Under the pieces are notes generated by a model. It was given only the letters and a program-made list of their open reading frames with translations, was not told where the DNA came from and did not search any database. The position numbers and the translations under genes are program-made. From a virus (Duplodnaviria > Heunggongvirae > Uroviricota > Caudoviricetes): a stretch of DNA of 18,257 bases. Shown here one piece after another: positions 1,657 through 18,257 of this stretch; within the stretch, counting starts at the first letter, position 1; every line of letters starts with the position of its first letter. The stretch is taken from IMG/VR virus record IMGVR_UViG_2600254997_000004. One strand, given 5' to 3'.

Positions 1657-4600
1657 TACCGATATGCTCCACTTAACCGACCACCATCACGGGCCTGCTG
1701 TTGCATAAAGTCCGCTGCCGCTTTTTTCCCGAGGTCATAAACCGCCTTCAGGGCAGCCGGACCTATCTGCCCGTTCGTGCCATCGTTATTGATCTCGATG
1801 TTGTACTGCGGGGAAAACATCGCCATACCTGAACCCCCAATATCCGCCACAACCCCCAGCTTACCGTCAGCACCACGACGCAATGGCAGAATGGCTTCAG
1901 GTCCCGCTTCCCCCATCACACCTGCACCTTTTGCAAAAGCAAAAAACGTCGGACGGTTAACCACCGTGCCACTGTAGCGACTCAAATCAGCAGACTGATA
2001 AACACCACCATCAGCATTGGGCGTCACACTGGCAGTTGCTGCACTCCCCCAGCCAAACGCCGAACCAATCCCCTTAACTGCCTGCATCATGGACATCTGA
2101 GCCATGATTTTTGCCAGATCAGAAAGGAGCGAGGCGGTAAAAGATTTGAAGTTCAGTTTTCCGGTGGTACAGAATGTAGCCAGTGCATTACCTGCACTAT
2201 TAAATGCCGCTGTAAGCATCTGCTCCGCAGTGCCTGCCGCATTATCCGCATCTGCCGTGAAATTCTGAAACGCCCGCATGGCACCGTTTTTCCAGTTACC
2301 CTGAGCAATTTCAAGCTGTTGCCAGTAACGGCGATTCTCATTCAGTTGCCTGTTCAGGCTCTCCGTCAGCGCCTGCTCGGCCTTTCTGTAGTCATCCGTG
2401 TTATATGTCCCTTTCTGCTCACTATCCCGCCTCAACTGCTCCAGCTGTTGCTGGTATTTCTGGCGAAGGCTCAGTTGTACCTGATATCGCTGCCGCTGCT
2501 GATCACCCATACCCACCGTGGCGATATCCAGGTCATGTTGCTGACGCTGAGCGCGCTCTTCTTCAGCCAGTTGACTGGTCAGCTGAATTGTTTTTTTCTT
2601 CAGATCGTTGAGTGCCGTCTGTTTCTGAAGCTCCTGCTGTTTTACATCCAGCAGCGTCAGTGCCTGAATCAGTTCATCTTTACGGGCCAGCACACTCTTT
2701 TCATCTGCCGTCAGTTTTTTCCCGTCCAGGTCGCTGATGCGCTGCTGCAGAGCCAGAAGCTGTTTATGCGCTTCTGTCATCCTGTCAGTGGCAATGCCTG
2801 CTGACTGTCTGGCAGCAGCAATCTGTCCTTCCACCTGTGCCTGTTGCTGGCTGTACTGCAGCAATAACCGGGTGGCCTCATCATTACGGGTTTCGCGTGT
2901 TTTTTTCTTACCGGATGCCAGGGCTTTCTCGTAACGTTCATTTTCACGTTGTATCGCCGCATCCCTGACAGCCTGATCGGCGTACTGCATGGCATTAATA
3001 CGCGCAATTTCACGCTGATGTCGTGCTGCTTCCGTTTCATTCATCCGGTTCAGTGCAGCATTTTCAGCATTACGGCGTTTCTGTTGCTCCTGATAATTCC
3101 GCTCTGCCTGCTCTTTTGCATCCTGCAAATCCTTCTGGCGTTTTTTCTCCTGAAGCTCGTTAAGACGCTGCTGATCGTATTCAACCTGAGAAGATGATGC
3201 CGTCCAGGGGAGTCTTTTCGCCCGCGATACTTTCTCCTGCAAAGTGGCAATCTGCGCATCCAGCGAATCTTCACGACCAATATTCATGGCCGCATCCCAG
3301 AACTGCTTCCACCAGTCAGACAAGGTTTGCAGCGTACTACCCAGCGCATTGAGGTTATTATCAATATCCGCAGTACGCCGACCGGTTTCCTCTGCCAGTG
3401 CAGACATGGCTATCCGTGCCGCATCACTGGACCGCCCCTGCTCTCCAAGGATGCGTATCTGCTCAAGCTGAGTGGCAGTAAGAAAATGCAGCTCATTGTC
3501 CAGAGCCTTCGCGGCATTTACAGGATCATCCTTCAGCCGCTTAAACTGATTTATGGTATCGCTGATCGACTGGCCAACCGATCGCTCCATCTGTGCGGCA
3601 GCTCTCGCCACCATACCGATATCGTTTCCACGAAATGCACCACTCCCCACCACCTGAGCCAGCGCACCGGCTGCAGCATGTTGCGTGATACCATTCCCGG
3701 AAATAGCACGACTGAGCGTCCACAGCTGCCCGGCAGTGACTCCGGCATAATGCCCCGTCAGCGACAGCTGGCGGTTAAATTCTTCCCCCTCCTTCTGACC
3801 GTCATACCAGGCTTTACCCAGACCATAGACAGCCGCGGCAATACCGCCAATAACCCCGCCCAGCATCATGCCTTTCGGTGACATCAGTGTGTCTATCCAT
3901 CCGGCACGGTTAGCCAGCGTTATCCCGGATCCCCTCAGCGCCCCTAAATTGCCGCGGGCCAGTTCACCTATCAGAACGCCTATCTCCTGGCGGGCCGCTG
4001 CACTTTTCAGACCCAGCGAATGCGTGGCTTTTCCTGCCCGCTCCATTTTGCGGATATACACTTCTGCAGCACTGCTTACCCCCAGCTGGGCAGCCTTAGC
4101 ACGAAGCAACTCAGAAGATGAAAGATTCTGGCGGGTTGCCTGCTCTTTAAGCTGACGGATAAACGCCACTTTCTGTCGGGTACCCTCTTCCTCAGCCTGT
4201 GTAAGAACACGGGTTTTCGCCGTAACCTCAGAAATCAGCGCCAGATAATCCTGCTGACCAATCCCGCCACTGTTTCTGGCCTGTCGGATCTGCTGCTGAA
4301 TACGCTGTAATTCCTGCAGCCCCGCATTGGCCTGTTTCACACTGTCAATCTGACGATAAAACGCAGCAGCCGCTTTATCCTGAGCCTCCGCCAGAGCCAT
4401 GGCCTGCGCCTGTTCCTCGCGCATTTTCTGGCTCAGCGCCTCCATGCGCTGGCGGGTTTTCTCCACCTCGCGGGCCATGCGTTCATGAGCCTGTGCGTTC
4501 TTCTCCACCGTCTGCGCATGGACGGATGCGGCTGTTGCAGCCGAAGAAGCCGCCTGCGTTGTCTGCCGGGCGGCCTGAGTCTGACGCTCCATAAAACGCT

Positions 4601-5052: not shown

Positions 5053-5429
5053 GGCGTCAGCGCCTCATGCTCATCATCCCCGGCATTATCAATGGTCCCC
5101 ATACCGCTCAGCGACAGAACCATCTCCGCCCCCGCACCCAGGGCATCATACGACCATGTTGTAATAACGGATGCGCAAAGCGTCTCTACATCCTTAGACT
5201 GATCCGCATTCCACAGTGAGCGGGAAACCAGCCAGGCATTGATATCCATCCCCATCCGCAGAAAAGCAATCTGTCGTTCAGCCTCCGGCAGTTCTCCCTC
5301 TTCGGCATCAAACTTTGCCGTTCGCTGCTGAACAAACGCCAGATATTCAATTCTCTGCAGCCCGGACAGCTCACTGAGCACCACGGACTGCTTTTCATAA
5401 TTAAACGTGCCCTGTTTCAGAAACATCAT
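5040..5429 (-). CDS. G: Tail assembly chaperone G (lambda gpG-like)
   Basis: MMFLKQGTFNYEK...LSELSGLQRIEYLAF resembles the lambda gpG N-terminus (MFLK...); GGTGGAG Shine-Dalgarno upstream of the ATG pair at 5429/5426; acidic C-terminal tail; the ORF-track start at 5468 is a TTG extension. Confidence 0.85.
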   Translation of the reverse strand: MMFLKQGTFNYEKQSVVLSELSGLQRIEYLAFVQQRTAKFDAEEGELPEAERQIAFLRMGMDINAWLVSRSLWNADQSKDVETLCASVITTWSYDALGAGAEMVLSLSGMGTIDNAGDDEHEALTPEKS

Positions 5430-15998: not shown

Positions 15999-16492
15999 TG
16001 CTGCCCCCACAAACAGACTTCACGCTCAATATCACGACGGGTCATCAGCCCTTTCCATTGCTTACCGCCAGCGTATGTCCAGCGACGTAGCTGGTCACAT
16101 GCGCCTTTGATATCACCCTGGTTTATTTTGCGAAGAAGCGTCGATGTTCTGAAATTACCAGCGCCCACGTTGTAAACGAACGAGTAAAGAGCGCCGCGCG
16201 TTGTTTCCGGTATATCGACTTTGATGTACGGGTTAATTTGTCTGGCGACCATGGCAAGGTCTTTATTCAGGAGGGCTTTGCATTCTGCTTCGGTATACGT
16301 TTTACCGGGAATGATGTCTTTTCCGGTGTGTCCGTGACATACAGTCCATACGCCAACGATATCTTCGTATGGTATGTAGCTGACACCTTCCTGGCCATCG
16401 TCACCACTCGGACCAGTGATGAGCACAGACGCTATGGCAACAGCCCCACCACCAATAGCAGCAGCAACAGCCTTGCGTAATGATGGCGACAT
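15995..16492 (-). CDS. R: SAR endolysin (phage 21 R-like lysozyme)
   Basis: N-terminal Gly/Ala-rich SAR segment ([20 protein letters not shown]) followed by a lysozyme core ([16 protein letters not shown]); very similar to R21 as I recall it. Confidence 0.9.
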
Positions 16493-16707
16493 TATTCACC
16501 TCTCGCAGCCTTACGCTTATCTTCTTTAATCTTGAAATAAAGGTTTGTCAGATACGTCAGCAAGCCAAACACCAGGCTACCCAATACGCCTATTGCCACC
16601 CACTGGGATGGGGAGACTTTGTCCAGCAACTGCAGTAGCCAGTATCCCGTCCCCACCGCTGACGTGGTGTATGACACACCTGTTGTTATTTTTTCCATCT
16701 GGTACAT
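16492..16707 (-). CDS. S: Pinholin (phage 21 S-like) with dual-start motif
   Basis: [10 protein letters not shown]...[40 protein letters not shown] resembles S21; Met1 and Met4 give 71-aa and 68-aa forms; GGGAG upstream of the ATG at 16707. Confidence 0.9.
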
Positions 16708-16807
16708 ACCCCGTCTCCCGTTATCCGGAAGCTGACAACAATAAAAAGCCACCAGTTAATTCCTGATGGCCCTGATGCATAAACGTCATAATACCTGACT
16801 GTTATGA

Positions 16808-16935
16808 TTGACAATAATGATAATGTTTATATAGAAAGGTTCCCGATGTGTGTTACATATCATTTCTCCACGGGGAATATCCCCACGCCAGCGCAGACTC
16901 TTTTACCCGTTCTCTTCTGCGCTGGCTCTTTTTTA
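16808..16935 (+). ncRNA. Candidate small RNA: sigma70-like promoter (TTGACA-N16-TATAGA, 16808-16835) plus two stem-loops and a U-tract terminator (to 16935)
   Basis: -35 TTGACA at 16808-16813 and -10 TATAGA at 16830-16835; hairpin GGGGA-ATA-TCCCC (16872-16884); perfect 11-bp inverted repeat GCCAGCGCAGA/TCTGCGCTGGC (16887-16926) followed by TCTTTTTTATT; antisense to the tR'-to-S spacer. Confidence 0.3.
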
Positions 16936-17115
16936 TTATGCTGCTGCATTTACCTCTGGCACCATGCTTTCTATCTCAACACAATACGTGGTACTTCTTG
17001 TAACCAATATCATAACGATTAATCGACATAGAATTTCTCCCGTGTACAGGAACAGAGTTAAAAAGCCGGAACCGGAATCAAATCACAGGATGACCATCTG
17101 CCAGTGGCAGGTCAT

Positions 17116-17142
17116 AAAAAAAAGGCCGCGCCATGCGCAGCC
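17116..17142 (-). terminator. Strong intrinsic terminator (tR'-like) about 410 nt upstream of the holin gene
   Basis: Minus-strand RNA GGCUGCGC-AUG-GCGCGGCC (8-bp stem) followed by 8 U; its position relative to S mirrors lambda tR'. Confidence 0.7.
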
Positions 17143-17296
17143 AGAACTCACAAGGAAAATGATAGAAGGAAATAACATTAGTGATGTACGCATGGCGCCT
17201 CCCGCTAAGTTCTGCAATGATCAAACAGAATTCGCTACGTGCCCTTAAAACTCAATCATTTAGCCCCTCCAAGGAGGATTCACCATGCGGTTGATT

Positions 17297-17325
17297 TTTT
17301 AATAAACAGTAAACAAAAAAGTCAA
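17297..17325 (-). promoter_or_regulatory. Candidate late promoter (pR'-like) about 170 nt upstream of the tR'-like terminator
   Basis: Minus-strand TTGACT (plus 17320-17325) followed after 15-16 bp by TATTAA/ATTAAA; AT-rich upstream; spacing to the terminator is like the lambda pR'-6S-tR' arrangement. Confidence 0.3.
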
Positions 17326-17328
17326 GGA

Positions 17329-17439
17329 TTATTCATTCTGTTTTTTCATCATCGGCCACAGCAATACCACAATGCCGCAGACCAGAGCGCCATCAGTCAG
17401 TACCAACATTATCCTGCTGGTGAAATCCATCATCACCAT
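17329..17439 (-). CDS. Hypothetical 36-aa hydrophobic peptide (single predicted transmembrane helix, basic C-terminus)
   Basis: ATG at 17439..17437, stop TAA at 17331..17329; MVMMDFTSRIMLVLTDGALVCGIVVLLWPMMKKQNE; no clear Shine-Dalgarno; ends 4 nt before the candidate -35. Confidence 0.3.
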   Translation of the reverse strand: MVMMDFTSRIMLVLTDGALVCGIVVLLWPMMKKQNE

Positions 17440-17573
17440 CACTAAAAAGCAGGATCACAACAGCAAGCAGACACAGTTTATAAAACAATGTTCAGAAAAC
17501 GCATTCAGCATGCCTAAGGTTCTATTCCTACGAATAGCCAACTTGCAACTTAAAATATTATTTATGCAGCCAA

Positions 17574-17813
17574 TTAAATTCTGGTCCTTACAATATCAAC
17601 CTGAAGATTCTTATCTTGTGCTGATTGATAAATGACAAACCTTTTACTACCTGCATTGAAAGAAGTAGACAAAACCAGACAATTATCATAACGAGCAAGA
17701 ACATAATACCAACCATCATTATAATTAATCATTTCATATTCTTTCTTAAACTGCGGTTTGTAATATCCTGTCAGAAATGAAAAAAGCCAGAAATATGCCA
17801 CAAAAGCAATCAT
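17574..17813 (-). CDS. Hypothetical 79-aa protein with N-terminal hydrophobic segment, encoded in the AT-rich island
   Basis: ATG at 17813 (the ORF-track start at 17816 is GTG); MIAFVAYFWLFSFLTGYY then a polar domain; surrounding DNA is far more AT-rich than the rest of the prophage; weak ribosome binding site. Confidence 0.45.
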   Translation of the reverse strand: MIAFVAYFWLFSFLTGYYKPQFKKEYEMINYNDGWYYVLARYDNCLVLSTSFNAGSKRFVIYQSAQDKNLQVDIVRTRI

Positions 17814-17865
17814 CACAATCTCAAAAAAATGTTTTTTATAAATGGCTTATCATAGAAGCATGATA

Positions 17866-18257
17866 CTGATGAATCCCCTAATGATTTTTATCAAAATCAT
17901 TAAGTTAAGGTAGATACACATCTTGTCATATGATCAAATGGTTTCGCCAAAAATCAATAATCAGACAACAAAATGTGCGAACTCGATATTTTACACGACT
18001 CTCTTTACCAATTCTGCCCCGAATTACACTTAAAACGACTCAACAGCTTAACGTTGGCTTGCCACGCCTTACTTGACTGTAAAACTCTCACTCTTACCGA
18101 ACTTGGCCGTAACCTGCCAACCAAAGCGAGAACAAAACATAACATCAAACGAATCGACCGATTGTTAGGTAATCGTCACCTCCTCAAAGAGCGACTCGCT
18201 GTATACCGTTGGCATGCTAGCTTTATCTGTTCGGGCAATACGATGCCCATTGTACTT
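17866..18257 (+). mobile_element. IS10 (IS4 family, Tn10-type) outside end and 5' portion; continues beyond the window
   Basis: From 17866 the sequence reads CTGATGAATCCCCTAATGATTTTTATCAAAATCATTAAG..., which I recognise as the IS10 terminal inverted repeat, followed by the IS10 transposase start; abrupt junction with the AT-rich island. Confidence 0.85.
17973..18257 (+). CDS. IS10 transposase, N-terminal part (truncated by window end)
   Basis: ATG at 17973 (IS10 bp 108) opens MCELDILHDSLYQFCPELHLKRLNSLTLACHALLDCKTLTLTELGRNLPTKARTKHNIKRIDRLLGNRHLHKERLAVYRWHASFICSGNTMPIVL, open to the end of the window. Confidence 0.85.
   Translation, partial: MCELDILHDSLYQFCPELHLKRLNSLTLACHALLDCKTLTLTELGRNLPTKARTKHNIKRIDRLLGNRHLLKERLAVYRWHASFICSGNTMPIVL

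Follow-up and report, generated by a model that had tools for sequence, protein, structure and literature searches.

What is the unit of promoter, short transcript and terminator that precedes the lysis genes in the virus record IMGVR_UViG_2600254997_000004 (Caudoviricetes): the late control region of the prophage, built like the pR'-6S RNA-tR' module of phage lambda, or a gene in its own right? The record, an 18,257-nt stretch referred to in its entirety as the window, ends inside the insertion sequence (IS) IS10. The late genes and the promoter/terminator unit all lie on the minus strand of the window, in the order IS10 end, remnant of a membrane-protein gene, DUF3927 gene, TTGACT, terminator, holin, lysozyme and Rz. 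A reading made from the letters of the window, hereafter the sequence-only reading, had noticed a strong intrinsic terminator at 17116-17142, about 410 nt upstream of the holin gene, and a TTGACT element about 170 nt further upstream. Both are there: the terminator has a stem of 8 bp (17142-17124; seven G-C pairs and a loop of 3; GGCUGCGC-AUG-GCGCGGCC) followed by U8 down to 17116, the holin start at 16707 lies 409 nt below the U-run, and TTGACT (17325-17320) is found 178 nt upstream of the stem. The further observation that no Q gene lies in the roughly 540 bp up to the IS10 end was also borne out by the open reading frames (ORFs) of the window and by Pfam, as the 541 bp between TTGACT and the IS10 end hold only the 3' remnant of the membrane-protein gene and the DUF3927 gene. 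The interpretation placed on these features is another matter. We find that the unit at 17288-17116 (minus strand) is very probably a pasD1-type small RNA (sRNA) gene with its own promoter, located inside the leader of the late operon, and not a lambda pR'-6S-tR' module. The pasD1-type gene found here is an sRNA gene that has already been described, so that the finding itself is already known.

PasD1 was identified in prophage PP4 of the enteropathogenic Escherichia coli (EPEC) strain E2348/69 as an RNA of 173 nt (NC_011601, 1060260-1060432; Table S6 in Pearl Mizrahi et al., 2021, PMC8550237), where it was validated by Northern blotting and shown to be Hfq-dependent; EcOnc13 is its homologue in enterohaemorrhagic E. 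coli (EHEC) (PMC8550237). The interval 1060260-1060432 maps to 17288-17116 of the window, and the two copies are identical at 171 of 173 nt, both substitutions falling in the 5' domain. The Northern probe used in that study, CATGCGCAGCCAGAACTCACAAGG, matches the window exactly at 17132-17155, and the seed, UGUGAG (17152-17147), is single-stranded and directly 5' of the terminator, as published. The terminator itself is of the PasD1 type (GCAUGGCGCGG) and not of the PasD2/434 type, and the chimeras of PasD1 recovered with Hfq by RIL-seq (ligation of interacting RNAs, then sequencing) in E2348/69 (1060384-1060434) end at this terminator (PMC8550237). The closest known RNAs are PasD1 and PasD2 of E2348/69; with PasD1 the window unit shares probe site, seed, terminator and promoter. 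The similarity extends to the surroundings: the 1.17 kb between the holin gene and the IS end are 99.7% identical to PP4, and a megablast search with the whole window returned PP4 at 98.8%, without the IS. An exact 43-nt pattern spanning the IS junction had no match in collections of genome and metagenome contigs, and identical copies of proteins from window-specific ORFs turned up solely on contigs that were unrelated or tiny. The pasD1 locus of E2348/69 has the same neighbours, with DUF3927 upstream and an Esr41-like sRNA and a P21-type holin/lysozyme pair downstream; unlike in E2348/69, the membrane-protein gene of the window is cut by IS10 and its DUF3927 gene, tciB, is frameshifted. According to a recent preprint, PasD is a structural relative of the sRNA STnc100 and is typically flanked by a Q gene, Esr41-like matches and the holin/lysozyme operon (Zhu, Shabalina and Storz, 2026; 10.64898/2026.05.13.724894). 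Of the neighbours expected for PasD1, the window has DUF3927 directly upstream and holin/lysozyme downstream; Q, expected upstream, would lie outside the window and is seen in relatives, among them two genomes with an identical IS junction. The assignment of 17116..17288 (minus) as a pasD1-type gene of 173 nt is based on the sequence identity, the probe match, the STnc100 model and the predicted folds; expression is known from E2348/69, from which an Hfq-dependent RNA of about 173 nt is predicted for the window copy.

The promoter of pasD1 (17297..17325, minus) comprises TTGACT, a 17-nt spacer and the -10-like hexamer TTAAAA (17302-17297). The published 5' end of PasD1 (NC_011601, 1060260) maps to G17288, which lies 8 nt after TTAAAA and is taken as +1. 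TTGACT alone is not beyond chance, and the case for a promoter rests on this 5' end and on conservation in the family. Among 11 family copies from 10 loci (including the window, E2348/69, phage 434, Shiga toxin (Stx) phages of the Stx2a, Stx1 and Stx2c types, PhiR12_3, 716R1 with two copies, and a Klebsiella phage) the arrangement TTGnCn-17/18-(TTAAAA/TTAGAA/TAGATT)-7/8-GCATGGTGAATCC is kept; GCATGGTGAATCC is invariant, and the spacers and upstream genes are unrelated. The helix that closes the conserved 5' domain of the family also starts at +1, which speaks for a promoter here. A signal for RpoD in chromatin immunoprecipitation with exonuclease treatment (ChIP-exo) has been reported at STnc100 promoters in Salmonella LT2. 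RNA sequencing of E2348/69 (Table S2) gives baseMean values of 6 for Q, 147 for the membrane-protein gene, 8652 for pasD1 and 5.4 for the holin gene, or about 0.01, 0.2, 50 and 0.025 reads per nt, respectively, with a fall of about 2000-fold from pasD1 to the holin gene. Thus, pasD1 stands far above any upstream transcript, and transcription essentially ends before the holin gene. TTGACT-17-TTAAAA is PasD1's own σ70 promoter and not a Q-loading late promoter, and pasD1 forms a complete transcription unit of its own within the leader of the late operon.

It could be argued instead that PasD1 has no promoter of its own and is the stable, Hfq-protected 3' end of a longer transcript initiated at pR' (or, in the window, at pOUT of IS10) and ended by this terminator, with TTGACT a coincidence. 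Many Hfq-dependent sRNAs derive from 3' ends, lambda pR' is constitutive, the lysogen contains transcripts of the membrane-protein gene, the search for terminators from pR' to pasD1 found none in the lineage with a lambda-type Q (see below), and the -10-like hexamer is weak. However, the read density on pasD1 is about 250 times that on the gene just upstream, the -35 and -10 elements are conserved at fixed spacing despite unrelated upstream genes (stx2B, stx1B, tciB and others) and differing spacers, and RpoD binding is reported at the STnc100 promoters, so that we regard an origin of PasD1 by 3'-end protection as improbable.

Where, then, is pR'? In E2348/69 the uninterrupted order is Q (207 aa), a gap of 252 bp, the gene for a 247-aa membrane protein, tciB (DUF3927), pasD1 and holin. 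In the uninterrupted relatives, 1,244 bp and two genes separate the Q stop codon from the pasD1 promoter, and a different, lambda-like promoter is found 40-70 bp after Q. The Q protein of the relatives (PF03589) is identical to lambda Q at 203 of 207 residues, and the DNA after its stop codon aligns with lambda pR' from above the -35 to about +12 and then diverges completely. TTGACT is shared and the spacer, in lambda the Q-binding part, is near-identical; at the -10 the relatives have GAAACT instead of the TAAATT of lambda, and AATAAT replaces its pause-inducing AACGAT. Judged from this alignment, the promoter directly after Q is the Q-loading promoter, about 1.2 kb upstream of that of pasD1. 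By inspection, the pasD1 spacer, TTTTTGTTTACTGTTTA, and the start of its transcript, GCATGGTGAATCC, show no likeness to the lambda Q-binding region or to the -10-like pause element. In addition, the membrane-protein/tciB/pasD module follows a Q82-type Q (PF06323) in phage 434 and other prophages, as well as the lambda-type Q; in phage 434, which is viable, it lies between the Q82-like Q and the lysis genes. An STnc100 homologue follows stx2B or stx1B in Stx phages. Since the module is independent of the type of Q, the pasD1 promoter cannot be a Q-specific site.

These observations bear directly on the sequence-only reading, in which the TTGACT unit is the pR'-6S-tR' of the prophage, Q is missing or displaced, the late genes are blocked and the prophage is defective. 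The geometry is indeed lambda-like (a promoter and a terminator that bound an RNA of about 170-190 nt, with the holin gene about 400 nt further on), no Q lies within the window, and in the uninduced relative the terminator stops nearly all transcription before the holin gene. Yet a lambda-type pR', aligned from its -35 to about +12, directly follows Q in the relatives, 1.2 kb and two genes upstream; the spacer and initial transcribed sequence of pasD1 lack the lambda elements; the module follows Q genes of the PF03589 and PF06323 types, and stx2B in Stx phages; and two genomes carry an intact Q beyond an IS junction identical to that of the window (see below). The identification as pR'-6S-tR' is largely refuted, and we consider it very improbable. 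What stands of it is a constitutive-looking promoter, a short terminated RNA (about 173 nt) and a terminator that is very probably a barrier to late transcription; what falls is the role of the promoter in loading Q, the unit being that of the known sRNA PasD1.

The terminator (17116..17142, minus; terminator scan and local fold) has a local folding energy of -17 kcal/mol (z = -2.8) and is clearly more than chance. As with pR' and tR', an intrinsic stop is found here between a promoter and the lysis genes, and in the near-identical prophage of E2348/69 pasD1 is strongly transcribed and the holin gene hardly at all. Phage 434 has a good hairpin terminator after its Q82-type pR' (-13.3 kcal/mol, z = -3.9), whereas the lambda-Q lineage carries a sequence homologous to the 434 tR' without the hairpin (z about 0); a simple pattern search, which is blind to Rho-dependent sites, turned up no further intrinsic terminator from pR' to pasD1 in this lineage. 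The PasD1 terminator is probably the first effective stop downstream of pR', and we infer for it a role equivalent to that of tR'. A mosaic junction, at which the lambda Q/pR' module passes into a 434-type leader, is seen at about +12 of the pR' transcript (positions 4341-4390 of locus L001, compared with lambda, L003), and it removes the 434-type tR' hairpin.

We propose that the σ70 promoter TTGACT-17-TTAAAA would start an RNA at G17288 and that the terminator at 17142-17116 would end it as a 173-nt, Hfq-binding species, acting in trans through the UGUGAG seed. The gene, of the PasD/STnc100/EcOnc13 family, lies in the late leader of a lambdoid prophage related to PP4; in the uninterrupted relatives the late operon runs from Q and pR' through the membrane-protein gene, tciB, pasD1 and an antisense Esr41-like sRNA to holin, lysozyme and Rz. 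With the ancestral tR' hairpin degenerate in the lambda-Q lineage, the PasD1 terminator would be the first stop met by unmodified polymerase from pR', and Q-modified polymerase would read through it on induction. A more elaborate version, which we put forward tentatively and hold to be possible but not likely, is that recombination destroyed tR' in the lambda-Q lineage and the PasD1 terminator took over as the Q checkpoint; constitutive transcripts from pR' would serve, in the lysogen, to express the morons (the membrane-protein gene and tciB), would stop at this terminator and would add a second, 3'-derived source of PasD1, and IS10, with pOUT facing pasD1, would disconnect that supply or rewire it.

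The absence of Q from the window is explained by the IS10 insertion. The outer end of the element, cut by the window edge (17866..18257, plus strand being that of the transposase), was identified through RNA-OUT (RF00240, 97 bits at 17980-17911, minus) and by alignment to Tn10 of R100. Its 392 nt show one mismatch to IS10-Left of Tn10 in R100 and seven to IS10-Right, and have all six IS10-Left-specific substitutions; pOUT/RNA-OUT reads outward, toward pasD1. The end abuts TATCATGCT (17857-17865, minus) inside the membrane-protein gene, the first of the two morons. Two complete O111:H11 genomes carry IS10 at exactly the window site and in the same orientation. In these the IS is 1329 bp long and flanked by a 9-bp duplication of TATCATGCT, read on both sides in locus L002, with the inside end facing Q and the outer end (pOUT) facing pasD1; an intact Q, whose protein has the accession of E2348/69 Q, has its end 712 bp past the IS, and its pR' comes next. 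The sequence-only reading had itself named an intact Q directly adjacent on the far side of IS10, together with normal inducibility, as the finding that would speak against it: such a Q is present beyond the identical junction in both genomes, but 0.7 kb away and not directly adjacent. What keeps Q out of the window is that IS10 and two moron genes stand in between and that the record breaks off within the IS. The notion of a missing or displaced Q gives way to the relatives, which carry Q and a lambda-type pR' upstream, its absence here being a matter of the window boundary and the IS. Nor does anything we found support the predicted defect in lysis and particle production, which the source strain may nonetheless have.

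In the arrangement of the relatives, IS10 would put at least 1.3 kb between Q with its pR' on one side and pasD1 with the lysis genes on the other; pasD1 keeps its own promoter. Without Q, transcripts from pR' would enter the IS, and pOUT would read toward tciB and pasD1. The pattern scan found no intrinsic terminator inside IS10 in the late direction. It is established for lambda that polymerase modified by Q passes intrinsic as well as Rho-dependent terminators over long distances; late expression therefore need not be lost through the IS10 insertion, which by itself need not block it. Q-modified polymerase would, we infer, read through IS10.

Several points weigh against the account given here. 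The STnc100 model (RF02076) matches 17318-17113 (minus) end to end in the Rfam scan, but with 32.5 bits (E = 8e-5), below the gathering score of 47, and the copy in O111:H11 locus L002, also matched over its full length, likewise stays below it with 37.7 bits; the window unit is a structural relative of STnc100 and not a member by the Rfam threshold. A consensus scan, which demands A at position 2 and T at position 6 of the -10, called no promoter at TTGACT because TTAAAA has neither; TTAAAA makes a poor -10-like hexamer, and the 5' end of PasD1 could still, strictly, be a processed one. The pattern search for terminators, as noted, does not see Rho-dependent sites. With regard to the IS, the O111 copies are of the IS10-Right type and that of the window is IS10-Left, and the insertions may be independent events, perhaps at a preferred site; gene conversion or the presence of a whole Tn10 are further possible sources of the difference. 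The element here could be a complete Tn10, which would put Q about 10 kb away, and that the source strain has a Q past the IS is deduced from the relatives.

The lambda pR'-6S-tR' module and the pasD1 unit have much in common: in both, a constitutive promoter with TTGACT as its -35 gives a terminated RNA of comparable length, the holin gene lies at a comparable distance, and the terminator has to be read through for lysis. Unlike the lambda module, the pasD1 unit stands apart from Q, has no likeness to the Q-binding and pause elements and no homology to 6S RNA, and PasD1 is an Hfq-dependent, trans-acting sRNA, unlike lambda 6S RNA. A further parallel is StxS, the short pR'-tR' transcript of Stx phages, which is reportedly made in the lysogen and works as an Hfq-dependent sRNA. 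Both StxS and PasD1 are short terminated RNAs from a lambdoid late leader; StxS, however, starts at pR' itself, whereas the PasD1 promoter is separate and more than 1 kb downstream of pR'. The result matters chiefly to annotators. Where a short RNA with promoter and terminator precedes the lysis genes of a lambdoid phage, it should not automatically be called pR' and tR': many EPEC and EHEC prophages, Stx phages and phage 434 have at this place an independently transcribed gene for an Hfq-dependent sRNA (PasD/STnc100), with the Q-loading promoter beside Q. Likewise, when a window stops within an IS element, its lack of Q does not show the prophage to be defective. One point alone is mildly new: in the lambda-Q lineage the terminator of the sRNA probably doubles as a checkpoint of the late operon.

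STnc100, which occurs in Salmonella prophages and, in Stx phages, downstream of stxB, shares with the window unit the 5' GCAUGGUGAAUCC, a C-rich hairpin and the CCGGGAGGCNCC hairpin, as well as the closing helix, the terminator and the layout of the promoter. It occupies the same position in the late leader, ahead of nanS-p or holin. It differs in the central part and in the seed region, and BLAST gives no link between the two; the STnc100 homologues in phages were found by a BLAST search with the Rfam consensus against a phage collection. The matches listed by a scan of genome contigs with a 15-base STnc100 motif were all chance ones in unrelated phyla. In the folds of pasD1 the 5' domain is closed by pairing of GCAUGGUG with CGCCAUGC; across the family the closing helix of this conserved domain begins at +1, and GCAUGGUG pairs with CGCCAUGC or CACCAUGC. 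In Stx phages (positions 5205-5235 of locus L125 and the equivalents in L126 and L128), the STnc100 terminator is directly followed by a second G+C-rich hairpin preceded by an A-run, which would serve the opposite strand as a terminator; this second hairpin is missing from the PasD1 copy.

The transcript might also be read as a small mRNA or a dual-function RNA, with an ORF that runs through the terminator and is completed only on read-through. An ATG at 17193 is preceded, at 4 nt, by GGGAGG, a strong Shine-Dalgarno sequence, and opens an ORF of 36 aa (MRTSLMLFPSIIFLVSSGC...), and the phage 434 record has a 62-aa 'putative membrane protein' annotated over the same stretch. But a 1-nt indel inside the ORF separates the PasD1-type copies from those of the PasD2/434 type, so that neither frame nor start is conserved, and in the STnc100 relatives GGGAGG lies in a conserved hairpin loop with an unrelated ORF downstream. 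A coding function is scarcely credible, and the lipoprotein-like small ORF was rejected on the lack of a conserved frame between PasD1 and PasD2/434.

Downstream of pasD1, the holin gene (16492..16707, minus), the first of the lysis cassette, encodes a class II, P21-type holin (PF04971, E = 1e-32; annotation of the RefSeq homologue). The start codon of holin is preceded, at 38 nt, by a second terminator-like hairpin (16745..16773, minus; terminator scan and fold), whose stem of 10 bp runs into UUUUUAUU; it folds with -16.6 kcal/mol (z = -2.9) and may be a further barrier in the late leader, a backup to the PasD1 terminator. Between this hairpin and pasD1, an Esr41-like sRNA gene with its own terminator (16847..16936, plus) is oriented convergently to pasD1, and its RNA would be antisense to that of the late leader. 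It matches RF02676 with 32 bits (E = 1e-3), below the gathering score of 102, and is preceded by a promoter-like CTGACT-18-GATAAT (16795-16824). Hfq RIL-seq chimeras of E2348/69 map to the equivalent of 16894-16935 under the label of a coding sequence, 'E2348C_1013' (baseMean 2064, Hfq-dependent). The element looks like an expressed sRNA that is nameless in the sources used. A RefSeq hypothetical protein of 132 aa (WP_012578864.1; 16850-17248, plus) overlaps both the Esr41-like sRNA and, in antisense, pasD1; this ORF is probably spurious and not a gene.

Upstream of pasD1, tciB (17329..17488, minus), for a small DUF3927 membrane protein, was recognized by the PF13064 match of its intact homologue and as a split ORF. 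A run of T5 at 17448-17444, where E2348/69, the O111 genomes and phage 434 have T4, causes a +1 frameshift that splits the 52-aa ORF; this is either a real frameshift or a homopolymer sequencing error. The membrane-protein remnant (292 bp; 17574..17865, minus) was delimited by alignment to the PP4 and phage 434 loci. The protein of 247 aa, with a TfpB-like N-terminus (PF27470), is intact in relatives (E2348C_1012; gp68 of phage 434), and the remnant has a run of A6 where E2348/69 has A7. The gene is often split at this A6/A7 run (about 17830-17835 of the window, minus; loci L132-L137), so that, as far as can be judged from sequence, the moron is frequently a pseudogene or phase-variable. Its 79-aa C-terminal ORF is called separately in hundreds of assemblies (829 index blocks).

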